DNA from: Myxococcales bacterium
Lineage (GTDB): Bacteria; Myxococcota_A; Polyangia; Palsa-1104; SHYY01
Reading direction: 5' to 3'
DNA: 63,791 bases
Assembly: GCA_023248875.1 (NCBI GenBank)
Contig: JAHFDT010000001.1
Location: 1 to 63,791 of the forward strand
Position numbers and translations under genes: made by a program. Below are positions 7,751 through 49,339 of the stretch, piece after piece. The first letter of the stretch is position 1; each line of letters begins with the position of its first letter. The notes beneath the pieces are model-generated. The model was not told the origin of the DNA. It did no database searches and saw only the letters and a list, made by a program, of their open reading frames with translations.

Positions 7751-9250
7751 ATGCCCACCATAAAAAAGATCCTGATCGCCAACCGCGGTGAAATCGCCGT
7801 GCGCATCATCCGCGCCTGCCGCGAGCTCGATATCGCTGCCGTGGCGGTCTTCTCGGAAGCCGACCGAACCGCGCTCCATGTGCGCATGGCCGATGAGGCT
7901 TATCCCATCGGGCCGGCTCCTGCGCGGGAGAGCTACCTCGCCGCCGATAAGGTGATCGCCGCTGCCCGGAAGGCCGGGGCGGACGCTATCCATCCGGGCT
8001 ATGGCTTTCTCTCCGAACGCGCCGACTTCGCTCGCGCCGTCGCGGACGCCGGCCTGGTGTTCATTGGGCCGCCGCCCAGCGCCATCGAAGCCATGGGCAA
8101 CAAGACCCGCGCTCGGATCCATATGCAGAGCGCAGGAGTGCCCGTAGTACCGGGCAACAACGGCCCCGAAGGGCGCGGTTTCCCCTCCCCGCAAGCTGCG
8201 TTCGAGGCGGCGCGCCAAATCGGCTTTCCGGTGATGCTCAAAGCGGCGGCTGGCGGCGGCGGTAAGGGAATGCGCCTGGTCGCAGAAGAAAAAAAATTCG
8301 ACGCGGCGTTTCAGGGAGCTCAGCGCGAGGCAAAGAGCGCTTTTGGTGATGACACGGTCTATCTGGAGAAGGCCGTGATCCGACCGCGCCACGTCGAGGT
8401 GCAGATCTTTGCAGATACTCAGGGCCACGTGGTGCATCTCTTCGAGCGGGACTGCTCCATTCAGCGGCGCCACCAGAAGGTTATCGAAGAGGCGCCTTGC
8501 CCCGCGGTCTCGCCGGCGTTGCGCGCCCGCATGGGCGAAGTCGCTTGCCAGGCGGCGCGCGCGGTCGGTTACGTGGGAGCCGGCACCTGTGAATTCCTGG
8601 TCTCGGGCCAAGACTTCTACTTCCTCGAGATGAACACCCGTCTCCAGGTGGAGCATCCCGTGACGGAGATGATCACCGGTTTGGATCTCGTGCGCCTGCA
8701 GATCGCCGTGGCGGAGGGCAAGCCCCTGCCGTTTGCACAAGGCGACCTGACGCCGCAAGGTGCTGCCATCGAGTGCCGCGTTTATGCCGAGGATTCGGTG
8801 CGGTTTCTCCCCTCGCCGGGCAAGATCACCATACTGCGAACGCCGGGAGGCCCCTCGGTACGAGATGACTCTGGCGTCTATCCTGGCGCCGAGATCTCGG
8901 TCCACTACGACCCGATGATCTCCAAGCTCATCGTGTGGGGGGAAAATCGTCTGGCCGCGATCCGGCGGATGGCACGCGCGCTCGACGAGTACCAGATCGG
9001 GGGCATCAAGACCAATCTCGCATTTCACCGCCGGGTCATGCGCAACACCGCTTTCCGCGAAGGCGACTATGACACCGGCTTCATCGAGCGCCACAAGGCA
9101 GAGCTGTGCACGCCCACCGAAATCCCCTCCCATCTCCTCGACGATGCACTCGCGGCGGCCGCCATCCACGCGCTGGCTGAAGCGCCCCCAGTGCTGTCGA
9201 ATCCACCCACGAACGGGCCCTCGGCCTGGCGACGGGAGTTGCGGCGCTAG
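7751..9250 (+). CDS. accC: Biotin carboxylase (acetyl-CoA carboxylase subunit type)
   Basis: The ATG at 7751 gives MPTIKKILIANRGEIAVRIIRACRELDI. ATP-grasp motifs GGGGKGMR and EMNTRLQVEHPVTE are present. A C-terminal extension of about 50 aa goes beyond the usual end. Confidence 0.9.
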   Translation: MPTIKKILIANRGEIAVRIIRACRELDIAAVAVFSEADRTALHVRMADEAYPIGPAPARESYLAADKVIAAARKAGADAIHPGYGFLSERADFARAVADAGLVFIGPPPSAIEAMGNKTRARIHMQSAGVPVVPGNNGPEGRGFPSPQAAFEAARQIGFPVMLKAAAGGGGKGMRLVAEEKKFDAAFQGAQREAKSAFGDDTVYLEKAVIRPRHVEVQIFADTQGHVVHLFERDCSIQRRHQKVIEEAPCPAVSPALRARMGEVACQAARAVGYVGAGTCEFLVSGQDFYFLEMNTRLQVEHPVTEMITGLDLVRLQIAVAEGKPLPFAQGDLTPQGAAIECRVYAEDSVRFLPSPGKITILRTPGGPSVRDDSGVYPGAEISVHYDPMISKLIVWGENRLAAIRRMARALDEYQIGGIKTNLAFHRRVMRNTAFREGDYDTGFIERHKAELCTPTEIPSHLLDDALAAAAIHALAEAPPVLSNPPTNGPSAWRRELRR

Positions 9251-9993
9251 ATCCTCATCTCTTCCCAGCGCAGACGCAGGGCGGATGGTCCGGGATCGAT
9301 CAGCAGGCTCAACTTTCCCTGGATCGCCCGCTGGAATAGCTCCGCTGCCGCCACCAGTCCATGTTGGGTCTGTCCGCCGGTTTGCATTGCGATTTTGGCA
9401 GCAAAACGCTCGGCGTCCGCCAGATGCAAGAAAATCGGCAACTCGCGCTGGAACATCAACATCCCACCGCGCGGATGGCCGAGCGTGTAGACCGGGCGGG
9501 CGGCGATCCGACGTGCCACTTCACGTCCGCGGCCCGCGTCCAGTAGCGCCTGGAGCTGCGCGCGTTCATCGACCGAGGTCACGCCGCTCGCCAGCGAGGC
9601 CAGCTCTCCCGCATCGAGAGGCACCGAACGCGCGACATCGATCACCATCAATGCTCCCGGGTGCCCCGCCAAGAGTCGAAACAGCGCTCCCCCTTCAAAC
9701 TTCCTCCACAGCGCCCCTTCGTCACCCCACCAGCCGCGATCACGGCCCCCCTCGACCAGCACCGCTTCCGCTGGAAAAACCGGCAACACGGCGATGCCGA
9801 GGGGGACCGATTCGACCAGCGGCGCCGCGAACCCAGCCTCGGCGCCGCCGATCTGCACCGAGGTGCGACGCGAAACGGTCAAGCCGATGGCGGGCACCCA
9901 AACGGGTTCCGTCAAAAGCGCGACATGCAGTGCGTTGCGCGCCGACTCATCCGCCAGCACGGCCAACATCGCTTCGACGAGCGGAGGGTTCAC
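9247..9993 (-). CDS. Hypothetical protein (possibly SseB-like two-domain protein)
   Basis: 248-aa ORF whose ends overlap both neighbours by 4 nt. No motif was recognised with certainty, and the SseB-like impression is weak. Confidence 0.5.
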   Translation of the reverse strand: MNPPLVEAMLAVLADESARNALHVALLTEPVWVPAIGLTVSRRTSVQIGGAEAGFAAPLVESVPLGIAVLPVFPAEAVLVEGGRDRGWWGDEGALWRKFEGGALFRLLAGHPGALMVIDVARSVPLDAGELASLASGVTSVDERAQLQALLDAGRGREVARRIAARPVYTLGHPRGGMLMFQRELPIFLHLADAERFAAKIAMQTGGQTQHGLVAAAELFQRAIQGKLSLLIDPGPSALRLRWEEMRI

Positions 9994-37812: not shown

Positions 37813-38264
37813 TGCAGCAGGCGCTCGAACGCCTGGTCGAGGGGCCGGCGTCCACGGAATCCACTATCGAGTTCGTGCCAGTAGCCGATCTGCTTCTCTC
37901 CGAGCCGCCAGCACAAGAGCACATCGCGCCCTTCCCGACGTACGACGAAGTCGCACAGGCCGGTATCGAGATCCTTCACCTGCACCCCTAGCTCGAGTAG
38001 CCCATCGAGCTCTTCGCCGAGCGTCTCGAGGAGAGCGATCGCACGTCCCCGAATCGCACGCACCTCGGGCGCACCCTCCGTGCGCCGGAGCGATTCGGGA
38101 TCCGTCGCTTCGCCCAGCCGATCGAGCGACGCTGCCGCCGAATGGAGCTCGGTCCTGATTCGCAGGATACGAGCAAACGTGCTCTCCAAATGGGGCACCA
38201 GGGCGTCGGCTTCCGCGATGGTGAAGTGGCGAATCGGGCGATCATCGCCCGCTCGGCTACTCAT
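37809..38264 (-). CDS. DUF2203-like protein
   Basis: The internal ATG at 38264 overlaps the upstream gene end by 8 nt. FTIAEADALVPHLE... and VKDLDTGLCDFVVRREGRDVLLCWRLGEKQIGYWHE match what I recall of DUF2203. Confidence 0.55.
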   Translation of the reverse strand: MSSRAGDDRPIRHFTIAEADALVPHLESTFARILRIRTELHSAAASLDRLGEATDPESLRRTEGAPEVRAIRGRAIALLETLGEELDGLLELGVQVKDLDTGLCDFVVRREGRDVLLCWRLGEKQIGYWHELDSGFRGRRPLDQAFERLLH

Positions 38265-39093
38265 TCTCTTCGTAAAGCAGCGTGTCCCGCTTTTCGATAA
38301 AGCGCTTGATCGCGTTGAGTGCGTCGGGCGACAGACTGGTCCAGCGGATGCCGCAACCAGCCTCCGATTCACTGGTGCTGTTGCAGATCCAACGCACCTC
38401 GCCCTCCACACGGAACGGCTCAGAGTTACCGGGCAGCGAGAGCATCATCTCCACCATGGTGCCCATGGGCGGCGATGATTTGGTGGCCACAAACAGCCCG
38501 CCTTCGCTGATGTTGTTGGTGATGCCCGCGTAGAAGTTGCTGGCTGAGCCCATGTTGACCGCCACCTTGAGCGGCACGCGCTCGTGCTGGCGTTGCTCGA
38601 CGTAGCGCTCCTCCGCCTCGCGTCGCAGGTCGGAAACCGACTTGATCTTTTCCTTGACGATCTCGGCGGGCGGTTGCAGCGAACCATCTTCATAGAGCAT
38701 GGTGTCCCGCTGCTCCACGAACTCGCGGATGAGGACCAGCGAATCCTCTGCAATCTTTGTGAACCGGATACCGCACCCGGCGAGAACACCGCTGGTGCCA
38801 CCCATCTTGCCGCGCACCCAACACACCACGCCCTCGATGACGAAGGGCTCGCCAATCGGCAACGAGAGGGTCATTTCGACTTCCGCATTGGCCGGCGGCG
38901 GATCGGTTGTAGCCACGAACAGGCCGCCCTCACTGATGTCGTTGGTGATCCCTGCGTAGAAGTTGCTGGTAGAACTCATCGTCACAGCAACCTTGAGTGG
39001 CACGCGCTCGTGAACGCGCCGCTCCGTCCCCGGTTCGATCGATTCGTTGCTCATCGTCTTTGGCGCTAGTTTCGCATAGGCCTGCTCGGCCAC
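38257..39093 (-). CDS. Tandem PilZ-type domain protein (two copies of the myxobacterial PilZ-like paralogous domain)
   Basis: There is an internal duplication. RRVHERVPLKVAVTMSSTSNFYAGITNDISEGGLFVATTDPPPANAEVEMTLSLP matches QRQHERVPLKVAVNMGSASNFYAGITNNISEGGLFVATKSSPPMGTMVEMMLSLP. Each copy is followed by a C(W/I)...GCGIR(F/W)T segment. Confidence 0.8.
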   Translation of the reverse strand: MAEQAYAKLAPKTMSNESIEPGTERRVHERVPLKVAVTMSSTSNFYAGITNDISEGGLFVATTDPPPANAEVEMTLSLPIGEPFVIEGVVCWVRGKMGGTSGVLAGCGIRFTKIAEDSLVLIREFVEQRDTMLYEDGSLQPPAEIVKEKIKSVSDLRREAEERYVEQRQHERVPLKVAVNMGSASNFYAGITNNISEGGLFVATKSSPPMGTMVEMMLSLPGNSEPFRVEGEVRWICNSTSESEAGCGIRWTSLSPDALNAIKRFIEKRDTLLYEENE

Positions 39094-39117
39094 GCAAGAA
39101 GTGCTTCACGAAGGGGA

Positions 39118-40323
39118 TTAGCTGGCTTTCTTCTCCCGGATCAAAACAGGCCGCTGGCGATTGACCACCACTTCGGCGTTGACCACGCACTCGCGCACGC
39201 CCGAGAGCGACGGGATTTCGTACATCACATCGAGCATCACCTCTTCGACGATCGCCCGCAACCCGCGCGCGCCAGACTTTCGGCGGTGCGCTTCCGTAGC
39301 AATCGCTCGCAATGCATCCTCGGTAAAGCGGAGCTTGACTCCCTCGAGCTCGAACAGCCGTTCATACTGCTTCGACAGGGCATTCTTCGGCTTCCACAGA
39401 ACTTCCGTCAGTGCATCCACGTCGAGCGCGTTGCAGGAGACGATGATCGGCAGGCGCCCCATGAACTCGGGGATCATGCCGTACTTCACCATGTCCTCGG
39501 TGCGCACCAGCGAGCGCAGCGCGTCCTTGTCGTCGTTGCGTTCGGCCAGCTGGGCGCCAAAACCCAGCCCGCGCTCGCCCACCCGGCGCCGCACGATGTC
39601 CTCGATGTGGTTGAACGCGCCGCTGCAGATGAACAGGATGTTGGTGGTATCGATCTGGATCAGCTCCTGCTGCGGTCGATTGCGCGCGCCGTCGGGCGTG
39701 ATGGTCGCGGTCTTGCCCTCCAGGATCTTGAGCAGCGCCTGCTGCACCCCTTCGCCCGAGACATCGCGAGTCGCCGACGGTCCCCCACCCTTGCGGGCGA
39801 TCTTGTCGATCTCATCGATGCAGACGATGCCGCGCGAGGCCTTCTCGGCATCGCCGCCCGCGTTGCGGTAGAGCGACTTGATCACGCTCTCCACATCTTC
39901 CCCGACGTAGCCCGCCTCGGTCAGCGTGGTGGCATCCGCAATCGCAAACGGCACATCGAGTTTGCGCGCCAGCGTCTGCGCGAGGAGCGTCTTCCCGCTC
40001 CCTGTCGGACCGAGCATGAGGATGTTCCCCTTTTGGATCTCCGTCTCGCCCGCCTTGGCCCCGCGCAGCACGCGCTTGTAGTGGTTGTAGACCGCCACCG
40101 ACAGCGCCTTTTTGGCGCGCCCCTGCCCGACCACATAGCGCTCAAGCTCCTCGGTGATCTCTTTGGGGCGAGGGTATTTGGGTCGCTCCTGGGCCTCCTC
40201 CTTGGAAATGATGTCGTTGCAGAGGCCGACGCATTCATCGCAGATGAAGACCCGTGGTCCGGAGATGAGCTTCCGAACTTCACGACGGCGTTTGCCACAA
40301 AAGGAGCAGTGAAAGTCGTCCAT
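39118..40323 (-). CDS. clpX: ATP-dependent Clp protease ATP-binding subunit ClpX
   Basis: The zinc finger is [26 protein letters not shown] and the Walker A is GPTGSGKT. The ClpX-typical IGF-loop region ([10 protein letters not shown]) and sensor motifs are present. Confidence 0.95.
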
Positions 40324-40400
40324 CGAGACCCTCGTCTTGACGATAAGTGTCGCACGAAATGGGCGATTGTGCCAACTGCGTTTGGTGATAGTCTCGCCCC

Positions 40401-40862
40401 ATGGCGCGCGTCTCGTGGGATCGCTACTTCATGGACATCGCCCGCGTGGTCTCCTCCCGCTCGACCTGCGAGCGCAAGTACGTCGGTTCGGTGATCGTAC
40501 GGGACCGGACGATCCTCTCCACGGGCTACAACGGGTCGATCCGCGGGCTGCCCCACTGCACGGAAGTCGGCCACATGATGGAAGACGGCCATTGCGTCGC
40601 TACCATCCACGCCGAATCGAACGCCATCCTCCAGGCGGCCAAAAACGGCGTTCTCATCGATGGGGCCACCTGCTACGTCACCGCCTCGCCCTGCTGGAGC
40701 TGTTTCAAGCAGATCGCCAACACCGGTCTGCGCCGGATCGTCTATGGCGAGTTCTACCGAGATCCCCGGATCTTCGAAGTGGCGACCCGGCTCGGGATCG
40801 AGCTGCACCACCTTCCGGCGGGCGCGGAGGAGGCGCTCGTCGCTAGCCCGAAAACTACTTGA
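40401..40862 (+). CDS. dCMP deaminase (ComEB-type cytidine/deoxycytidylate deaminase)
   Basis: The zinc-binding motifs HAESNAI (HAE) and PCWSCFKQI (PCxxC) are present. Confidence 0.85.
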
Positions 40863-40888
40863 CCGCCTGGGGAGTCGCGCCCTAGACT

Positions 40889-41599
40889 GTGGGTTTGTTG
40901 TCTGGATGGCCGACATATCTCGTTTGTTTCAGCGGAGTTATGCTGCTGATGGGCAGTTCTGCGCACGCCGATCGGCCCGATCCGGGGGGGCCCTCCTCCG
41001 TCCGACCGTTTGAGCGCCACACCCAGCTGCGCCGTAAGAAACGTCACCCCCCGGTGCTCTCAGGCTTTCTTGTGCCCCATTCGCAACTACGGGAGGAGCC
41101 CCTGCCGCGGCCGTCGGGCCATTTGAAACTGCGCGCGGTCAATTTCCGTACTGAAGCCGAAGTGGATCTCTACGGCCCGGACGGGGGCTATGATGACGAG
41201 GCGCTGGATACGCTCAACCACCTGTGGCGCTGCCGCCGTACGGGGACCGAAAAGCCGATCGACCCCCACCTGTTTGAGATTCTTTCGGCCATTCAAGACC
41301 ATTTTGACGGGCGCACGATCGAGCTGGTGTCGGGTTTTCGCAACCAGAAACGCACCACCAGCTTCCATTTTCATGGCAGCGCCGCGGATATCCGCATCCC
41401 CGGCGTTTCAGAGAAGACGCTGCACAGCTACGTGGGAACGCTAGACATCGGGGGCATGGGGCTCGGCCGCTACCCGCGCGCCGGCTTCATCCACGTGGAT
41501 GTCCGGCCCGAACCGAGCTACCGCTGGACCGACTATTCGGCACCCAACGAAAACATGGGACATCCGCATCGAAAACGTCGCAAAGCATCGAATTCGTAG
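40889..41599 (+). CDS. DUF882 / YcbK-like M15-fold peptidase, secreted
   Basis: Has a signal peptide. ELVSGFRNQKRTTSFHFHGSAADIRIPGV...GGMGLGRYPRAGFIHVDVRP matches the DUF882 core. Confidence 0.75.
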   Translation: MGLLSGWPTYLVCFSGVMLLMGSSAHADRPDPGGPSSVRPFERHTQLRRKKRHPPVLSGFLVPHSQLREEPLPRPSGHLKLRAVNFRTEAEVDLYGPDGGYDDEALDTLNHLWRCRRTGTEKPIDPHLFEILSAIQDHFDGRTIELVSGFRNQKRTTSFHFHGSAADIRIPGVSEKTLHSYVGTLDIGGMGLGRYPRAGFIHVDVRPEPSYRWTDYSAPNENMGHPHRKRRKASNS

Positions 41600-42004: not shown

Positions 42005-43054
42005 ATGCCTTTCGGCCTGCGAATCTTCTTGGTGCTGGCTGCAGCCGCGGCGCTACCGGCCTGCTCGTCCTGCCGCCGCTCCGCCGATTCGCAGGGGGAT
42101 ATCGCGCTTTTGCCCCAGGAAACGGGCGTCCTCTTCACCGCCAATTTGGAAAAGGCGCGCACCACCGCTTTTTGGCGCAAACTCATGGAGCTGCGCGGGG
42201 GCGAAAAGAGGGCCGCCGCCACCCAGCCGCCGGCCGGCGACGGCGCCCCCAAGGACTACGAAGAGTTCGTGGCTCGCTGTGGCCTGGATCCGCTGAAACA
42301 GCTGACATCCATCGCCATCGCGCTTCCGAGCGCCGGTCCAGCGACCGCGATGTCCGGTCAGTTTGGGGCCATTTTCCATGGCACATTCGATCCACAAAAG
42401 TTAGTCGCCTGTGCCCGCGCGACGGTGAAACAGGATGGCGGCGAGCTCAAGGAGGAGGATTACGCCGGTAAAAAGGTCTACACCGATACCCTATCGAGCG
42501 CGATGAGCTTCACCCTCCTCGATTCGCATACCACCGTGGTGGCGGGTCGCGAGTGGATCAAGAAAATGGTCGACCTGGCCACCGGCAAAGCGGGCGCCGG
42601 TGCTCGCGCCAACGCGCCGCTCGTCGAACTCCTGAAAAAGGTCGATGGTGCGGCAGCTTTTTCGGGGATCGGACTGGTTTCCGACGCGATGCGCGCCCGC
42701 CTCAAAGAAGATCCGCGGCTGGCGGTCGCGGCTTCGATGAAAGATGCCTACGGCTCGCTCGATTTTACCACCGGAGCAATGCTTTCGGCGGTCGTGGACC
42801 TCGGCAGCGATGCGGCGGCCAAGGAGCTCTCCGACAAGGTCTCCCAGCAGGTCCAGGAGTGGAAAAAGAGCAGCCGAATCATGATGATGGGGCTCGCTTC
42901 CTACATCGATGCGATCCAGGTGGTGTCCCACGGTTCGGCCTTTCAACTGAATGTGAAGCTCACCCAGCAGCAGCTCGATGAGTTGATTATGCGAGCTCAG
43001 GGTCTGCTGGGGGGCGGAATGATCCCCCCGATGGGGAGGGCAGTCGCACCATAA
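42005..43054 (+). CDS. Lipoprotein of unknown function (first gene of the EutN-paralog operon)
   Basis: The ATG at 42005 gives MPFGLRIFLVLAAAAALPAC, a lipobox. About 350 aa with no recognisable domain. Confidence 0.6.
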   Translation: MPFGLRIFLVLAAAAALPACSSCRRSADSQGDIALLPQETGVLFTANLEKARTTAFWRKLMELRGGEKRAAATQPPAGDGAPKDYEEFVARCGLDPLKQLTSIAIALPSAGPATAMSGQFGAIFHGTFDPQKLVACARATVKQDGGELKEEDYAGKKVYTDTLSSAMSFTLLDSHTTVVAGREWIKKMVDLATGKAGAGARANAPLVELLKKVDGAAAFSGIGLVSDAMRARLKEDPRLAVAASMKDAYGSLDFTTGAMLSAVVDLGSDAAAKELSDKVSQQVQEWKKSSRIMMMGLASYIDAIQVVSHGSAFQLNVKLTQQQLDELIMRAQGLLGGGMIPPMGRAVAP

Positions 43055-43068
43055 AGGAGTTGGAAATC

Positions 43069-43410
43069 ATGGCCACAGGCAAGAAGTCCCCGCTCGCGCA
43101 GGTGAAGGATCTGTTCAAGAACAAGGAGGCGCTGGTCGACCATCTGCTCGGCAAGCTCGAGCTTGGCGATGCCTCGAAGGACGATGTAAAGGCGCGTCTC
43201 TTGGCCGCTTCCAATAAGAAGCTGCTGCGCCTGCTCGAGGTCGCGAGCGAAGTGAAGGAAAAGTACGGCTCCTCGGAGAAGTTGGCCGAGACGGTGGCCA
43301 AGGCGGTCGGCAAAGCGAAGGACCAGGCCTATGTCGCCAAGGTGGCGCAGCTGGCCAAGCGGTCGCCGGCGCGCGTGCTCGACCTGTTGAAGTCGGCGAC
43401 TCGCAACTAG
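43069..43410 (+). CDS. Small Lys/Ala/Glu-rich helical protein
   Basis: The ATG at 43069 lies 9 nt after AAGGAG (43054-43059). The 113-aa protein looks helical and amphipathic. Its stop directly abuts the first EutN-like start. Confidence 0.55.
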   Translation: MATGKKSPLAQVKDLFKNKEALVDHLLGKLELGDASKDDVKARLLAASNKKLLRLLEVASEVKEKYGSSEKLAETVAKAVGKAKDQAYVAKVAQLAKRSPARVLDLLKSATRN

Positions 43411-43656
43411 TTGCGGCTGGCCCGGGTGATCGGTCCGGTGTGGGGAGCGCGGCGCGCGCGGACCCTGCAAGGCGTAAAGCTTCTCGAAATCGAGTGCGAA
43501 GGGGGCGACTGCCTGGTGGCGGTGGATGCCCTCGGTGCAGGGCCGGGCGAGCAGGTGCTGGTCGCGCACGGTTCGAGGGTGCGCGACCTGACCGTCGGGG
43601 CAGAGGTCGCCGATAAGGACATCGTGGTGGCGATCGTCGACGGAGTCGACCGGTGA
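43411..43656 (+). CDS. EutN/CcmL-family (BMC-P vertex pentamer fold) protein, paralog 1
   Basis: MRLARVIGPVWGARRARTLQGVKLLEIE...LVAVDALGAGPGEQVLVAHGSRVR...DIVVAIVDGV follows the EutN/CcmL consensus (MKLA.VIG.V.......L.G.KLL.V......VA.D.VGAG.GE.VLV..GS.AR.......D..IV.IVD). TTG start. Confidence 0.8.
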   Translation: MRLARVIGPVWGARRARTLQGVKLLEIECEGGDCLVAVDALGAGPGEQVLVAHGSRVRDLTVGAEVADKDIVVAIVDGVDR

Positions 43657-43985
43657 TCTTGGGGCGCGTGGTCGGCGAAGTGTGGGCGACGCGGCGCCAT
43701 GCGGGGCTCGACGCGCACAAACTCTTGGTGGTGCGCCCCTATTTCTGGTACGCCCCGCCCGCCGAAACGTCCCACCTCGTCGCCGTCGATACCGTCGGTG
43801 CGAACGTTGGACAAGAGGTTTTGGTGTGCCTCGGCGAGGGCGCACGGCGCACCGCGGGCAGCGGCAATCTACCGTTCGAAGCAGCGATCGCGGGCGTAGT
43901 GGACCGCGTCGAGATCGCTGCGGACGTGGGGCTGCGGCCGCTCACCTTCGTCGACGGCATCGCGCCGGAGGGCGTGGTCCCATGA
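43653..43985 (+). CDS. EutN/CcmL-family protein, paralog 2 (with insertion and C-terminal tail)
   Basis: The translation is MILGRVVGEVWATRRHAGLDAHKLLVVRPYFWYAPPAETSHLVAVDTVGANVGQEVLVCLGEGARR...FEAAIAGVVDRV followed by a tail of about 25 aa. The GTG start overlaps the previous stop (GTGA). Confidence 0.75.
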   Translation: MILGRVVGEVWATRRHAGLDAHKLLVVRPYFWYAPPAETSHLVAVDTVGANVGQEVLVCLGEGARRTAGSGNLPFEAAIAGVVDRVEIAADVGLRPLTFVDGIAPEGVVP

Positions 43986-44236
43986 TCCGCGGTCGGATCT
44001 TGGGCGAGGTATGGGGCGCGCGCCATGCCCGCGGGCTCGACGGCCGCCGCCTCGTCGTCGTGACCCAGCCGGCGGTCGACCGCGTGCTGGTGGCCGTCGA
44101 TACCCTGGAGGCCCGGGCCGGGCAGGAGGTGCTGGTCGCACTCGGCTCGGGCGCGCGCAATGTGCTGGCCCCGGGACCGGACAACCGCGCCGAGCTTGCC
44201 GATGCCGCGGTGGCGCTACTCGTGGATGGCGGCTGA
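43982..44236 (+). CDS. EutN/CcmL-family protein, paralog 3
   Basis: The internal ATG at 43982 (ATGA overlap) gives MIRGRILGEVWGARHARGLDGRRLVVVTQPAVDRVLVAVDTLEARAGQEVLVALGSGARN...ADAAVALLVDGG. Confidence 0.75.
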   Translation: MIRGRILGEVWGARHARGLDGRRLVVVTQPAVDRVLVAVDTLEARAGQEVLVALGSGARNVLAPGPDNRAELADAAVALLVDGG

Positions 44237-44553
44237 TGTTCCTTGGCAAAGTGATCGGAACCGTCTGGTCGACGGTCAAGTGGAAACAGATCGAGGGGCT
44301 CAAGCTCCTCTTGGTGCGCCCCTATTCGCTCGCCGATCTGACCGATGTGCCGGCGTCGACCCCGGCTCCCACCCACGACGCCGTGGTGTGCGCCGATGTA
44401 CTCGATGCTGGTGTGGGCGATGAGGTGGTGGTTGCGTATGGCCATGCCGCACGCGTGGCGGTCGCGGAAAAGTTGCCCCCAGGCGAACAGCCGCCCTATC
44501 CTATCGACGCGGCGATCGTGGCCATCATCGATGGGAAAAACATAACCCCATGA
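44236..44553 (+). CDS. EutN/CcmL-family protein, paralog 4 (with insertion)
   Basis: The internal ATG at 44236 (TGATG overlap) gives MFLGKVIGTVWSTVKWKQIEGLKLLLVRPYSLADLTDVPASTPAPTHDAVVCADVLDAGVGDEVVVAYGHAAR...PIDAAIVAIIDGK. Confidence 0.8.
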   Translation: MFLGKVIGTVWSTVKWKQIEGLKLLLVRPYSLADLTDVPASTPAPTHDAVVCADVLDAGVGDEVVVAYGHAARVAVAEKLPPGEQPPYPIDAAIVAIIDGKNITP

Positions 44554-45254
44554 AGGAAATCGTCCACGCCAAAGAGGGTTCGGTGCTGGTGCAGGTCCAA
44601 GGGGGCACCTTTGCCATGGGAACCAAGGGCCACAAGAAAGAGCCCGAGCACCTGCTCAACCTGCCGACCTTTGCGATCGGCAAGACCCCGGTCACCAATC
44701 TGCAGTTCGGCAAGTTCGTTGCGGCGACCAGCTACAAGATCTCCAACTGGTGGAGCGACTACGCCAAAAAATGGGGCGATGATGCGCCAGTCGTTTGCGT
44801 CACCTGGGCCGACGCACGCGCCTATTGCGCCTGGGCAGGACTGCGCCTCCCGACCGAGGCAGAATGGGAAAAGGCCGCCCGCGGCACTGATAAGCGCGAG
44901 TTTCCCTGGGGCAACGAGTTCAATTCTGCGCTCTGCCGCAGCAAGATCGGCCAGGAGTCGACTCAGCCTCTCCCCGTCGGTAGCATTCCAACCAATGGCT
45001 CGCCCTATGGCGCCCTCGATATGACGGGCAACGTTTCAGAATGGTGCTCCTCGCTCTTTTCACCCTACCCCTACAAGGGAGCCGATGGGCGTGAGAAGGC
45101 TGCCGTCGAGGGCGCAACCGTGCGCCGCTGCGTCCGTGGGGGCTCGTGGGCTGACGATGATCTCGCGATGCTGCGTTGTGCGGCACGGCGCTCCACGCTA
45201 GCGAGCGTTTCCGTTCACACCGTCGGTTTCCGCGTGGCGATCACGGTTCGTTAG
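44550..45254 (+). CDS. FGE/SUMF1-type (formylglycine-generating enzyme family) domain protein
   Basis: The ATG overlaps the previous stop (ATGA). PVTNLQFGKFVAATSY, VCVTWADARAYCAWAGLRLPTEAEWEKAARG, GNVSEWC, RGGSW and VGFRVA are the characteristic FGE-sulfatase-domain motifs. Confidence 0.85.
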   Translation: MKEIVHAKEGSVLVQVQGGTFAMGTKGHKKEPEHLLNLPTFAIGKTPVTNLQFGKFVAATSYKISNWWSDYAKKWGDDAPVVCVTWADARAYCAWAGLRLPTEAEWEKAARGTDKREFPWGNEFNSALCRSKIGQESTQPLPVGSIPTNGSPYGALDMTGNVSEWCSSLFSPYPYKGADGREKAAVEGATVRRCVRGGSWADDDLAMLRCAARRSTLASVSVHTVGFRVAITVR

Positions 45255-45654: not shown

Positions 45655-46202
45655 TAGCACTTGCCAAACAGGTAGCTCGCCGCGCACTGGCACTGGCAAA
45701 GCGCCTGCGCTTTGGCGTCCTTTTGGCGACACGCTAGAACCACCCGATTTCGGGCGGTGCCGCTGCGGCGCGACGCGAGCTCGGTTACCCTGAGTTCGAG
45801 CAGGTAGCTGTTCCCGAAAAAATCGATGCGCGCATTGTTGGGGCAGACGGCGATGTTGGAGACATTGGTGTAGCTGCGCAGATCGGGGATCAGTGTGTCC
45901 TCGCCTGCGGGAAGGAGCTCCACGGTGCGAGCGTTTTGGCCGTAGAGCGTCGCACCATCGAGCGACAGCAGCCTGCCGTCGAGCTGTACGGTCGTTTCGC
46001 GACCGTTGCGGATGCGCCCGCCGACAAACATCACGTGGCCCCCCTGCGGCGGAAAGACCAGATCGGCTGGATCGCCATCGTGCACCGGCTGGAGCGTCAT
46101 CGTTGCGCGGTCGTAAATCGCCAGCTCCACCTGCAAGGCAGCGCCATCGGCCACATCCACGGCGCCGCATCCAGCGAACGCCAAGAGCAAGAGCCCGCGC
46201 AT
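45654..46202 (-). CDS. Lipoprotein of unknown function
   Basis: The internal ATG at 46202 gives MRGLLLLAFAGC, a lipobox. It is 182 aa with a C-terminal Cys-rich tail (CRQKDAKAQALCQCQCAASYLFGKC). The annotated 447-aa ORF extension is antisense to the Kelch gene. Confidence 0.6.
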   Translation of the reverse strand: MRGLLLLAFAGCGAVDVADGAALQVELAIYDRATMTLQPVHDGDPADLVFPPQGGHVMFVGGRIRNGRETTVQLDGRLLSLDGATLYGQNARTVELLPAGEDTLIPDLRSYTNVSNIAVCPNNARIDFFGNSYLLELRVTELASRRSGTARNRVVLACRQKDAKAQALCQCQCAASYLFGKC

Positions 46203-46247
46203 GCTGCATCTTGTCAGCGCAGCCGAGATGATGGCAAGGTGGCCCGC

Positions 46248-47441
46248 ATGGCACGGTGCTTTTTTCTCCTTCTCATATTGGGATGCACTTCCACCCCTCC
46301 GGACAGCGCGAACGATGCAGGCGCGATGTGCACCCCTTCGGGGCTGCGCCCCGGCGCGCGCTATGCGCACCAGGCGGTGGCGGGCAATGGCAAGCTGTGG
46401 GTCTACGGCGGCGATAGCGCGCCCTTCAACCCGAATGGTATGACGCCCTCGGTCTACGTGGACGAGCTCTGGAGCTACGATCTCGGCTGCCAAAGCTGGT
46501 CGCGTAGCACAGGTCTCGGCGCACCCGGCCGGCGCGGTCTCTATGCGGCGACGCTCGACGAAAAACGCCAGCGCATCCTGCTCGTCGGCGGGCGCAAGAA
46601 CGATCACGGCTATGAGCTCCTCAATGACCTGTGGAGCTTCGACTTGATCGCGCAGAAATGGACGCAGCTCGGGCCCTCGGGCAGCCCGCCCAAGAAGCGC
46701 CAGAGCCATCGCGTCGTCTATGATCCGACCGGTGACCGGCTGCTGCTCTTTGGCGGCAATGGCGCGACTCTTTTCGGCGGCAACGTACTCGGCGACACCT
46801 GGGAGCTGAGCTTTGCCAGCGGCGGCGATGGCGCCTGGCAGGAGCTGAAACCCGCGCAGCATCCGAGCGCTCGACAGGATGTAGGTACCGCATTCGATGC
46901 CAGCCGCGGCCTGTGGCTGGTCTTCGGCGGCGCGTTCGACTTTAGCAACTACAGTGATGAGGTGTGGGCCTTCGAACTGTCGAAGAACGAGTGGCATCTC
47001 GTCGATATGAGCGGCGGCCGTCCAACGAAACGCTTTTGGGCGACCCTGGTACGCGATGAGCCGCGCGACCGAATCCTCCTATTCGGCGGCCATGACGATG
47101 GTCCGATCGGTCTGGTCAACGACAGCTGGAGCCTCGCCCTCTCCTCCGATGGAAAAACCGGTAGCTGGCAGAATCTCATCGGTGGCGATAGCGAGTTATC
47201 GATTGCCGGCGTCGACCCTCTCAGTCCCGAGCGCCGCAACAAGCAGAGCTTCGTCGCGCTCGGCAGTGAAGTCTGGCTCTTCGGCGGGATCACCGACTGC
47301 GGGCCCATCAACGACGTTTGGACCTTCGACCTCGCTGCCAATCACTGGACCCGCCGCTGGCCGGCGGAGCTGGGAGAGACATGCGCCCGGCGGGCCACGG
47401 AAAAGCAGACCTGTCCCAGTGATTGCGGGAACCCGCTATAA
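46248..47441 (+). CDS. Kelch-repeat beta-propeller lipoprotein
   Basis: The ATG at 46248 gives MARCFFLLLILGC. Six repeats carry the Kelch-like GG....NDLW.FDL pattern: VDELWSYDL, LNDLWSFDL, LGDTWELSF, SDEVWAFEL, VNDSWSLAL and INDVWTFDL. Confidence 0.8.
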   Translation: MARCFFLLLILGCTSTPPDSANDAGAMCTPSGLRPGARYAHQAVAGNGKLWVYGGDSAPFNPNGMTPSVYVDELWSYDLGCQSWSRSTGLGAPGRRGLYAATLDEKRQRILLVGGRKNDHGYELLNDLWSFDLIAQKWTQLGPSGSPPKKRQSHRVVYDPTGDRLLLFGGNGATLFGGNVLGDTWELSFASGGDGAWQELKPAQHPSARQDVGTAFDASRGLWLVFGGAFDFSNYSDEVWAFELSKNEWHLVDMSGGRPTKRFWATLVRDEPRDRILLFGGHDDGPIGLVNDSWSLALSSDGKTGSWQNLIGGDSELSIAGVDPLSPERRNKQSFVALGSEVWLFGGITDCGPINDVWTFDLAANHWTRRWPAELGETCARRATEKQTCPSDCGNPL

Positions 47442-47448
47442 TAGGGAC

Positions 47449-48021
47449 GTGAGCCGAATCCTCAAAGGGGGCAACAAGACGGGTGAGCTTCAGGCTGTGC
47501 CGGCGGATGTGGACGATCCGCGCGGTGAAGCGGAGCGGATCTTGCGCCAGGCCCAAGCGGAGGCGGAGCGGATCCGGTTACAGTCTGCGGCTGAAGGACG
47601 CGAGCGGGGGATGGCAGCAGTGACGGAGCTGCTCGTCGGGGCCCGCGCGGCGGCCTCGCGAATGCGATCTCAGTCGACGGCGGAGCTGCGTGCCCTCGCA
47701 GTCCGCATCGCTGAGAAGCTGCTCGGCCGCGAGCTCACCTTGCGGCCCGATGCGGTGACCGATCTGGTCGCCGAAGCACTGGGTGCCGCCAGCACGGCTC
47801 ACCAGTTGACCCTGCGCTGCCATCCCGATGATCTGGCTGCGCTCGAACGAGGGCGACCACGATTTGTCGAGCGTTGTGCCCGCGCGCAGGCGATTCAGTT
47901 TCGCAGCGACCCCCAGGTGGGACGCGGCGGTTGCATCATCGAAAGCGATTTGGCGACCATCGATGCACGCCTATCGACACAGCTGGATGTGATCGAACGA
48001 GCCCTTCGCGGCGATGAGTAG
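47449..48021 (+). CDS. FliH / SctL-like type III export ATPase regulator
   Basis: The GTG at 47449 lies 8 nt after the Kelch stop. An A/E/R-rich coiled N-terminal half (EAERILRQAQAEAERIRLQSAAEGRERG) is followed by a C-terminal FliH/YscL-like domain (…LTLRCHPDDLAALE…GGCIIESDLATIDARLSTQLDVIERAL). Confidence 0.65.
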   Translation: MSRILKGGNKTGELQAVPADVDDPRGEAERILRQAQAEAERIRLQSAAEGRERGMAAVTELLVGARAAASRMRSQSTAELRALAVRIAEKLLGRELTLRPDAVTDLVAEALGAASTAHQLTLRCHPDDLAALERGRPRFVERCARAQAIQFRSDPQVGRGGCIIESDLATIDARLSTQLDVIERALRGDE

Positions 48022-49339
48022 CCCGCTCGACCTCGAGAACGCGCTGCGTGTTCTCGATCACCTTCAGCCGACACGCGTGGCCGGCCGCGTCACCGAGCTC
48101 ACCGGTCTGGTCATGCGCGCCACAGCTCCGGGGGCGCGCGCTGGAGAGCTCGTCACCATCGACCGTTCCCGCGGCGGACCACTGCGGGCCGAGGTGGTCG
48201 GCTTTCGGGGCGAAGAGGTGGTACTGCTGCCGCTCGGCGACGCTGCTGGCGTGGGACCAGACTCGGTGGTTCGTCCCACGGGGCGACCGTTTTCGATCCG
48301 CTGCGGCCCCTCGCTGCTCGGCCGTGTGCTCGATGGCATCGGTGAGCCGATCGATGGCCTTGGTGAACCAGAAGGGCTCGAACCCTGGTCGGTTGAACGA
48401 AACTCCCCCGAACCGCTCAGCCGCCGCCGCGTCACCGCGCCGCTCAGCCTTGGCGTTCGTGCCATCGATGGTTGTCTTACTATCGGAGAAGGACAGCGGA
48501 TCGGCCTCTTCGCTGGACCCGGCCTCGGCAAATCGACTCTGCTCGGCCAGATCGCACGCTCCTCGACCGCCGAGGTCAATGTCATTGGACTCGTCGGAGA
48601 GCGGGGCCGCGAAGTGCGCGACTTCATCGAGAGCGAGCTCGGCCCAGAAGGGCTCAGCCGCTCCGTGGTCGTTGCTGCCACCTCCGATGCGTCGCCACTG
48701 CTGCGACTCAAGTCCGCGCTGGTAGCGACCGCCATCGCGGAGCACTTTCGCGCGCGCGGCAAACGCGTACTCCTGCTGCTCGACTCGCTCACGCGGGTGG
48801 CCCGTGCGCAGCGCGAAGTGGGCTTGGCCGCTGGTGAGCCACCTGCTCGACAGGGATTTCCACCCTCAGTGTTTGCGCTATTGCCGCGCCTCCTCGAGCG
48901 CACCGGCCAGTCTGATCGCGGATCGATCACGGCCCTCTATGCGGTGCTGACCTCCGCTCAAGGCGGCGACGATGGTGACGACCCGATCGCCGATGAGGTC
49001 CGGGCCATTCTCGACGGCCACATCTGGCTCTCCCGGGAGCTGGCCGCGCGCAACCACTGGCCGGCTATCGATATCGTGCGTTCCCTCTCCCGCGTGATGG
49101 ATGAAATTGTCTCTCCCGCCCAAAGACGGGCCGCCGCCAATCTCCGCGAAGTGGTCGCCATCTATGAACGCCAGCGCGAACTCATCCAGCTCGGTGCCTA
49201 CCGTCGCGGCAGCGATGCCGACACCGACTGGGCGCTCGAACGGATCGATGAGGCCTACCGATTTCTCCGCCAACCGCGCGACCAACCCGAACCGCTCGAA
49301 ACCGCGCGACACAAGCTGATCCAGCTGTTCGGAGACTAG
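48014..49339 (+). CDS. FliI/YscN (SctN) family type III secretion ATPase
   Basis: Overlaps the FliH-like gene by 8 nt. The Walker A is GLFAGPGLGKSTLL and the Walker B region is VLLLLDSLTRVARAQREV. ITALYAVL...GDD..DPIADE.R.ILDGHI.LSR.LA....PAID is typical of the family. Confidence 0.9.
   Translation: MSSPLDLENALRVLDHLQPTRVAGRVTELTGLVMRATAPGARAGELVTIDRSRGGPLRAEVVGFRGEEVVLLPLGDAAGVGPDSVVRPTGRPFSIRCGPSLLGRVLDGIGEPIDGLGEPEGLEPWSVERNSPEPLSRRRVTAPLSLGVRAIDGCLTIGEGQRIGLFAGPGLGKSTLLGQIARSSTAEVNVIGLVGERGREVRDFIESELGPEGLSRSVVVAATSDASPLLRLKSALVATAIAEHFRARGKRVLLLLDSLTRVARAQREVGLAAGEPPARQGFPPSVFALLPRLLERTGQSDRGSITALYAVLTSAQGGDDGDDPIADEVRAILDGHIWLSRELAARNHWPAIDIVRSLSRVMDEIVSPAQRRAAANLREVVAIYERQRELIQLGAYRRGSDADTDWALERIDEAYRFLRQPRDQPEPLETARHKLIQLFGD

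Follow-up and report, generated by a model that had tools for sequence, protein, structure and literature searches.

Why should a locus encode four different pentamer proteins of the bacterial microcompartment (BMC) shell, and no shell hexamer alongside them? This question is raised by a DNA stretch of 63,791 nt from a Myxococcales bacterium (contig JAHFDT010000001.1 of assembly GCA_023248875.1; this whole stretch is hereafter the window). A first-pass annotation had noted seven closely packed open reading frames (ORFs) on its plus strand at 42005-45254, and all seven were present at these coordinates in the ORF listing. Four of them, here called P1-P4, encode paralogs of the BMC pentamer (BMC-P; PF03319), and the gene directly upstream of P1 encodes a small basic helical protein. 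The conserved core of the locus consists of these five genes, in the order helical protein then P1-P2-P3-P4, and this cassette of soil myxobacteria is confined to uncultured Polyangia/Myxococcota. We consider the chances about even that the cassette is an undescribed distal (satellite-type) shell module of a metabolosome of the Haliangium ochraceum (HO) type.

Four pentamer paralogs and a helical partner in one operon

The helical protein (113 aa, isoelectric point (pI) 9.9, two repeats of ~45 aa) is encoded at 43069..43410 on the plus strand. The sequence AAGGAG lies 8 nt 5' of its ATG at 43069 and represents the good Shine-Dalgarno sequence that had been claimed for this gene. P1 (43411..43656, plus strand; 81 aa, TTG start), P2 (43653..43985, plus strand; 110 aa), P3 (43982..44236, plus strand; 84 aa), and P4 (44236..44553, plus strand; 105 aa) follow without a gap. 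Their assignment to the EutN/CcmL type at first pass was correct, as all four scored above the Pfam cut-off of PF03319 (25 bits), with 59.9, 81.7, 46.0, and 75.9 bits for the subfamilies P1-P4, respectively. The stop codon of the helical-protein gene directly abuts the P1 start (TAG/TTG). The overlaps reported further downstream were all seen, namely GTGA at P1/P2, ATGA at P2/P3, TGATG at P3/P4, and ATGA between P4 and an FGE/SUMF1-like gene. The TTG at 43411 as the start of P1 is backed by the N-termini of the orthologues and restores the conserved strand M-x-L-A-R-V-I-G. In the public annotation of the identical ENA and Logan contigs, P1 begins five codons too late and comprises 76 aa.

Compared with three relatives, all six genes had dN/dS values of 0.13-0.56. 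Because the Pfam scores are well over the cut-off, dN/dS is in this range, and the start and stop codons overlap, we conclude that the genes are real and that the stretch is a co-translated operon. Neither a sigma-70-like promoter nor a convincing terminator was found around the operon, and no Rfam family was found near it (two distant tRNAs only). There were no PADLOC matches for the operon, and its reading as a defence system was therefore rejected.

Each of the four paralogs represents an orthologous group of its own, with neighbour-joining (NJ) bootstrap values of 99, 99, 71, and 92% for P1-P4. The distances within the groups were 0.35-0.42, with P4 as the tightest group (mean 0.35), and the distances between the groups were 0.67-0.76. 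These inter-paralog distances are no smaller than those to canonical pentamers (0.65-0.82 from the quartet to the HO main-locus pentamers and to the members of the Acidobacteria BMC-P triplets), so the paralogs are old and diverged, as the first-pass annotation had proposed. On the same grounds, a recent tandem duplication was rejected. Monophyly of the quartet was weakly supported (55%). Among the NCBIfam models, P1-P4 appeared as weak relatives of CcmL, EutN, and CsoS4, far under the equivalog cut-offs; since none of these cut-offs was reached, P1-P4 are members of the family and not any named orthologue. All four proteins are acidic (pI 4.9-6.6) and have no signal peptide. The dN/dS values across the four P genes were 0.13-0.49, with 0.2-0.3 for P3.

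The conserved N-terminal strand described at first pass is kept in all four paralogs, although it comprises 11 residues and not 10 (M-x-x-(A/G)-(R/K)-(V/I)-x-G-x-V-W). The 'GA..G(E/Q)EVLV' core that had been described with it is merely approximate in P1, P3, and P4. The last residue of the strand, Trp11 (G-x-V-W), was found in 143 of 150 cassette proteins (36/37 for P1, 34/38 for P3, and 36/37 for P4), whereas canonical BMC-P proteins have Val at this position. Trp11 is a shared derived character of the quartet. Judging from shell structures, residue 11 probably lies on the edge of the pentamer tile.

A 2026 review (PMC13370225) describes, for shells of solved structure, a salt bridge between the arginine of the hexamer (A/P)RPH motif and the acid of the GAGxGE-type motif. 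This docking motif, GAGxG(E/D), is kept by P1, P2, and P4, and is degenerate in P3. The docking acid is present in all 37 P1 sequences (G-A-G-P-G-(E/D)), in 35 of 38 P2 sequences, and in 36 of 37 P4 sequences (D-A-G-V-G-(D/E)). For P3, it is present in 15 of 38 sequences; here, the middle Gly is replaced by Arg, and the motif mostly reads D-A-R-x-G-Q. The window copy of P2 has Gln in place of the acid. At residues 47-55, this protein and its closest relatives have GANVGQ instead of the family consensus GAGVG(D/E), with Glu as the next residue, and P2 of the window lineage therefore lacks the hexamer-docking acid. A further motif, IVD ((I/V)(V/I)D), is kept in P1 and P2.

Each subfamily also has signatures of its own. 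P1 is marked by AHGSRVRDLTVG, which is conserved among its orthologues, and P3 by GSGARNV. The insertions in P2 and P4 and the C-terminal tail of P2, which had been noted at first pass, are real and are also kept in the orthologues. The P2 insertion has the conserved form P(Y/H)xWYxP, with P29, W32, Y33, and P35 invariant. The P4 insertion comprises ~20 aa after the first hairpin, and the signatures of this subfamily are VKWP and RPYxLxDL. P2 is the most canonical of the four paralogs, with H. ochraceum BMC-P (5V74) as its top PDB match (E = 7e-13). The single-chain AlphaFold2 (AF2) model of P2, calculated from an alignment of 31 sequences, had a pLDDT of 49 and was unusable.

The orthologues of the helical protein are strongly basic (pI 9.3-10.7). 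An internal repeat of two ~45-aa units was detected (hhalign probability 96%, E = 4e-9), and the AF2 model is all-helical, with seven helices (pLDDT 79, pTM 0.60). No significant match was found in Pfam, NCBIfam, PHROGs, or PADLOC (a weak PHROG hit at E = 0.005 only), and there was no match in a sequence profile search of the PDB or in a fold search of the PDB and BFVD. Judged by these searches, the helical protein represents a new family. Its members (338 clusters at 90% identity, 404 at 50%) are all annotated as 'hypothetical', and all are small, with ~115 aa at the cassettes, and are not fused to other domains.

Some of the orthologues (L024, L026, L027, L034, L036, L037, L039, L041, and L050) carry Lys/Ala/Pro-rich, H1-like C-terminal tails of 30-70 aa. 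These tailed orthologues are located at about 9100-9750 of their loci; the window copy has no such tail. At another locus (L025:9167-10342, on CAVQDT010000006.1 of a long-read metagenome-assembled genome (MAG)), one stop-free frame runs through the helical protein, P1, and P2, with a linker that resembles a frameshifted Lys/Ala/Pro tail. This could be a true helix-P1-P2 fusion, or it could have arisen from two indel errors of the Nanopore assembly. If it is a true fusion, it would be a Rosetta-stone link of the helical partner to the pentamers.

Conservation of the cassette and location of shell genes

To determine the distribution of the cassette, one genome per GTDB species was scanned with a P2-alignment seed. 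This gave 46 loci, of which 36 are from uncultured Myxococcota and 10 are from Acidobacteria and a few other groups. The 36 Myxococcota loci are from MAGs labelled Myxococcales, Polyangia, Kofleriaceae, or generically Proteobacteria/Pseudomonadota (WGS prefixes SHYY, DATNAQ, JAQBQH, PNAM, DASXOU, DASREC, JANWLJ, CAYWPR, PLXG, JAXLYE, JBGANQ, JBBRLA, DAOLIT, DAOMZC, DAORGN, JAEUKA, CAVZVU, CAVQDT, CAVZEF, CAZNCQ, DATFWX, JBGAUT, CALLYL, CAYTGC, JAEUKB, CALMML, DATJWP, JBDRCO, DASRQT, DATKEU, JAGQIK, JADGRB, CAZCFB, DASRQZ, CAZEFW, and CAVRRT). From metagenomes, a second scan recovered a further 19 cassette loci together with 61 canonical loci. Beyond the window, there are thus 55 independent cassette loci (36 species-level MAGs and 19 metagenome contigs), or 56 with the window; as the scans were pattern-seeded, these counts, like the E-values, underestimate the true distribution. 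When clustered at 90%, the P2 homologues number 267, and all of the named ones are from Myxococcales/Polyangia MAGs.

The order P1-P2-P3-P4 is fixed in every Myxococcota locus, and each gene has its best match in the window gene at the same position. An orthologue of the helical protein is located directly 5' of P1 at 36 of 38 genome loci and at all 16 metagenome loci that reach far enough. The two genome loci without this gene in place are L035 and L038. At L035 (8110-9582), recA is directly 5' of P1, and the helical-protein gene is undetectable; at L038, no helical-protein match was found upstream of P1.

We then looked for shell hexamers (BMC-H; PF00936) using a hidden Markov model (HMM) built from five hexamer sequences, of which the H. 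ochraceum member is identical to PDB 5DJB. When the 63.8-kb window was translated in six frames, this HMM detected no PF00936-like ORF in it. Likewise, tblastn searches of the window with HO-type BMC-Tdp, BMC-H, aldehyde dehydrogenase (AldDh), PduS-like, and BMC-T queries gave no match. The earlier statement that no BMC-H/BMC-T protein or AldDh is encoded nearby thus holds for the window; phosphotransacylase, also mentioned there, was not searched for. The same was seen at all 56 cassette loci, where no homologue of BMC-H, BMC-T, BMC-type AldDh, or PduS was found in 715 kb of genome flanks and in the metagenome contigs (up to 10 kb per side at the 55 other loci). In contrast, wherever the contigs of the 61 canonical loci from the same metagenome scan extend far enough upstream, BMC-H is encoded at a distance of 0.3-2.5 kb, and its detection there served as the positive control of the HMM. 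In the terms of Axen 2014 and Sutter 2021, the cassette has the composition of a satellite locus, as it contains one shell-protein class only (PF03319) and is distal. It differs from a main locus as defined by Sutter 2021 in that there is no PF00936-like ORF in the window or in the flanks.

A main locus was found elsewhere in one of the cassette MAGs, GCA_035258845.1 (SMAG_U9502). In this MAG, the cassette is located on DATFWX010000073.1 (L028), and a main locus of the HO type is located on DATFWX010000003.1 (L054). The main locus, which contains the BMC-H search hit P0326, encodes BMC-Tdp, BMC-H, a canonical BMC-P of 97 aa, AldDh, and a PduS-like protein, and its BMC-H is 90% identical to HO BMC-H. 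The GC contents of the two contigs match (69.5% and 68.5%), as does their tetranucleotide usage (r = 0.954). The main locus ends in the PduS-like SLBB/4Fe-4S protein (L054:6939-8039); the other HO loci that were fetched end in a second BMC-T.

A protein search for BMC-H gave at least 8000 candidates, and the best 120 of these were all 82-97% identical to HO BMC-H. Eight hits were traced to the encoding assembly or metagenome. One of them is in the cassette MAG described above (DATFWX), and seven are outside the cassette list. As this list contains species representatives only, the seven non-overlapping HO loci are uninformative. The BMC-H hit list also contained a protein of 141 aa (P0264) with precomputed hits to both PF00936 and PF03319, and this protein represents either a fusion of hexamer and pentamer or two genes merged in the call. 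Another locus (L046, on CAZNOC010000079.1), labelled 'Bifidobacteriaceae', contains BMC-H and a BMC-P triplet and is nearly identical in layout and sequence to loci of Vicinamibacterales (Acidobacteria); this label is probably a binning error.

Genes flanking the cassette

The first-pass annotation had treated all seven genes as a functional unit. This did not stand, since the lipoprotein gene and the FGE-like gene at the two ends of the operon are not conserved partners, and the conserved unit is therefore five genes and not seven. The synteny that had been proposed for them is not kept for the FGE-like gene and is kept in part for the lipoprotein gene. Both are neighbours of the cassette, not components.

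The lipoprotein gene (42005..43054, plus strand) encodes an exported protein of 349 aa with a signal peptide and the lipobox LPAC. It belongs to no recognized family, as no match was found in Pfam, NCBIfam, PHROGs, or PADLOC. The signal peptide and the Cys are present in all of the orthologues. An orthologue was detected at 22 of 38 genome loci (about 60%), adjoining the cassette at ~17 and 3-5 kb upstream at ~7. It is missing at about 40% of the genome loci, and unrelated genes intervene at others. The lipoprotein gene is thus a frequent but dispensable upstream neighbour.

The FGE/SUMF1-like gene (44550..45254, plus strand) encodes a cytoplasmic protein of 234 aa. Its domain had been correctly named, with a PF03781 score of 190 bits (cut-off 23.3 bits). 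The nearest solved relatives of the protein are the C-terminal domains of EgtB and OvsA, not true FGEs. Examined by eye, its sequence RGGSWADDDLAMLRCAARR has no CxxxxC directly after GGSW; the catalytic cysteine pair of FGE is expected after GGS(W/Y). The gene was found 3' of P4 solely in the window and in two short contigs of identical sequence, and no FGE homologue was found beside the cassette at the 55 other loci. It is therefore a lineage-specific passenger that is coupled to P4 by ATGA and lies outside the conserved cassette.

The gene located 3' of P4 varies among the loci and encodes a PD40-repeat Ser/Thr kinase at some, a CysZ/EI24-like or a DUF6748-Kazal protein at others, and an unknown protein at still others. 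At 15-16 of 38 genome loci, a gene pair for an ACT-domain protein and a DUF711 (PF05167) protein is located ~2.5 kb 3' of the cassette (e.g., L003:12757-14761). This pair is absent from the window, and it probably reflects clade-level synteny and not a functional link. In the window, the region upstream of the operon (38257-41599) encodes a double-PilZ protein, ClpX, dCMP deaminase, and a DUF882/peptidase M15 protein, none of which is microcompartment-related. On the other side, 1.8 kb 3' of the operon, genes for a FliH-like protein and a type III secretion/FliI-type ATPase are located at 47056-49339, adjoined by the gene for a Kelch-repeat protein of 501 aa (45936-47441).

Readings of the cassette and its meaning for the pentamer family

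Neither the four-pentamer locus nor the helical-protein family is described in the 2014 and 2021 BMC catalogues or in the later papers found by full-text search. The portions of the catalogue supplements that were available contain no Myxococcales/Polyangia entry and no four-pentamer locus. The closest known arrangement is found in HO-type BMCs, whose shell genes are scattered among satellite loci; these BMCs are found mainly in Deltaproteobacteria, then including the myxobacteria (PMC8217296). The HO satellite loci resemble the cassette in that they are myxobacterial and distal from BMC-H, and encode BMC-P as their only shell proteins (PMC8217296; PMC4207490). The first-pass annotation was right about such a separate locus for Haliangium, as the HO type I satellite consists of two BMC-P genes and an aldolase gene (PMC8217296). 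However, the arrangement is different. The HO satellite combines two BMC-P proteins of the grey and orange clades with a class II aldolase (pfam00596), whereas the cassette has four BMC-P genes and a conserved gene for a basic helical protein, and is aldolase-free. All four cassette proteins also differ from the HO main-locus pentamer in having Trp11 and in belonging to separate subfamilies. H. ochraceum itself lacks the cassette and has three BMC-P genes in total (PMC4207490).

Several old, co-conserved, and adjacent paralogs are also known from the BMC-P triplets (green/blue/purple with grey and orange) of HO, SPU, ACI, FRAG, and MIC loci. In contrast to the cassette, these triplets adjoin BMC-H. 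The cassette is a quartet, and in a comparison with Acidobacteria control sequences its members clustered with none of the three triplet types. The FRAG loci also have their shell genes scattered over several sites, often far from the enzymes, but they are defined by a triplet, occur in Ignavibacteriae, Gemmatimonadetes, and Planctomycetes, and have neither the helical partner nor a quartet. In having one class of shell protein and a distal position, the cassette fits the formal definition of a satellite locus, yet it is not the catalogued HO satellite and is probably not a BMC-P triplet. For the helical partner, the nearest parallel is the vertex protein AMC-P2 of Hodarchaeales, which reportedly has a fused, K/R-rich, disordered, nucleic-acid-binding tail (preprint PMC12747264). 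Both systems link a vertex pentamer genetically with a strongly basic element, and some of the helical orthologues are Lys/Ala/Pro-tailed. The AMC-P2 tail is a disordered fusion, whereas the cassette encodes a separate helical protein, predicted from its sequence and model to be folded and to consist of two repeats. The SPU and HO compartments have been proposed to process nucleic-acid breakdown products.

Four lines of evidence point to the distal shell module, namely the PF03319 membership of P1-P4, the docking motifs kept by P1, P2, and P4, the occurrence in a phylum where HO compartments with scattered shell genes are common, and the one MAG with both loci. The hexamers, trimers, canonical pentamer, and AldDh of the metabolosome would then be encoded elsewhere in the genome. 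The four acidic paralogs take the BMC-P fold, as indicated by the profile matches, and would assemble as pentagonal tiles. Based on their conserved motifs and on the published shell structures, P1, P2, and P4 may dock to BMC-H edges via GAGxG(E/D) and (I/V)(V/I)D, and could then serve as alternative or specialised vertex caps. More speculatively, the co-made basic helical protein might bind the acidic pentamers as an adaptor, and it might even tether a polyanion, such as nucleic acid, to the vertices. This adaptor role is suggested by the complementary charges, the near-invariant adjacency of the genes, the H1-like tails of some orthologues, and the analogy to the Hodarchaeales vertex tail.

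Several observations weigh against the distal shell module. At the 56 cassette loci, no BMC-H is within reach, and the co-occurrence with a main locus is known from one MAG only, where the bin could be chimeric. Six other HO-bearing assemblies are outside the cassette list, which again comprises species representatives only. The satellite option, raised at first pass, is favoured directly, if thinly, by the MAG with both loci, and also by the docking motifs. A main locus devoid of its own BMC-P, which the first pass had also considered, was not seen, as a canonical pentamer is encoded within the L054 main locus itself. The cassette is not required for HO shells, since they assemble without it and H. 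ochraceum carries three BMC-P genes only (PMC4207490). The cassette also lacks the aldolase of the catalogued HO satellite, and the quartet lies outside the green, grey, and orange triplet clades of the control sequences. Moreover, the tile edges may be re-tooled, because Trp11 replaces Val in all four paralogs and P3 lacks the docking acid.

In a different and more tentative reading, along the lines of the non-shell option raised at first pass, P1-P4 form hetero-oligomeric rings or a pentamer-only particle that binds the helical protein, without a BMC-H shell. Such a complex could be, for example, a small cage or scaffold, or it could be nucleoid- or polyanion-associated, with its subunits made in near-equal amounts from the overlapping genes. 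Independence from hexamers would better explain than the distal shell module why BMC-H, BMC-T, and AldDh are never linked to the cassette while its canonical relatives adjoin BMC-H, and why Trp11 is so widely kept. It would also better explain the overlapping stop and start codons, which are typical for the subunits of one complex and suggest equal dosage, and the dedicated, near-universal helical partner from a new family found nowhere else. The absence of the cassette from cultured HO-bearing myxobacteria points in the same direction, as does the origin of the BMC-P fold from OB-fold proteins, which form rings in other contexts (PMC5683377). However, at least one cassette MAG encodes a full HO-type shell, and no genome has been demonstrated to be PF00936-free. 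Without a hexamer partner, it is difficult to see why three of the paralogs strictly retain the docking acid and the IVD motif, although the loop could serve another contact, and the literature regards PF03319 as unique to BMCs (PMC8217296). In its boldest form, which we consider rather doubtful, the cassette would be the first pentamer system that works without hexamers. The Trp11-re-tooled P1-P4 and the helical protein would then form an autonomous particle or ring, maybe polyanion-associated, in hosts that are possibly shell-less.

Two further explanations are much harder to maintain. All seven genes of the window are translationally coupled or closely spaced, and a lipoprotein orthologue adjoins the cassette or is nearby at 22 of 38 genome loci, which could suggest a machine anchored at the envelope by the lipoprotein, with the FGE-like enzyme modifying, for example, an encapsulated substrate or a cassette protein. 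This is very improbable, because the FGE-like gene does not adjoin the cassette at any of the 55 other loci, and each clade has a different downstream gene. Furthermore, the pentamers lack a signal peptide, unlike the exported lipoprotein, whose gene is missing at about 40% of the loci and is separated by unrelated genes at others. Finally, the distance to shell hexamers and enzymes, together with the degenerate docking motif of P3, might indicate that P1-P4 are functionless relics of a lost microcompartment locus. This possibility can hardly be credited and was rejected. All 56 loci share one gene order and have intact frames, across lineages that are only 45-75% identical, the dN/dS of the P genes is 0.13-0.49, and the subfamily-specific signatures are strongly conserved. 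Purifying selection and conservation across at least 36 species are not consistent with decay.

A shell could be closed with 12 identical caps at its vertices, and why many loci for microcompartments nevertheless encode several pentamer paralogs is acknowledged in the literature as an open question (PMC8217296). The cassette is an extreme and clean case of this multiplicity, with four conserved subfamilies in a fixed order, always off the shell genes, and with a dedicated partner from a new family. It makes four possibilities addressable: vertex capping by 'extra' pentamers, the formation of mixed pentamers, adaptor recruitment, and action outside shells. The five-gene unit is compact and can be expressed with or without the established H. 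ochraceum shell system. If P1-P4 do act independently of hexamers, this would extend a fold considered unique to microcompartment shells to a use of a categorically new kind, and the assumption of genome surveys that PF03319 marks a microcompartment would need revision.

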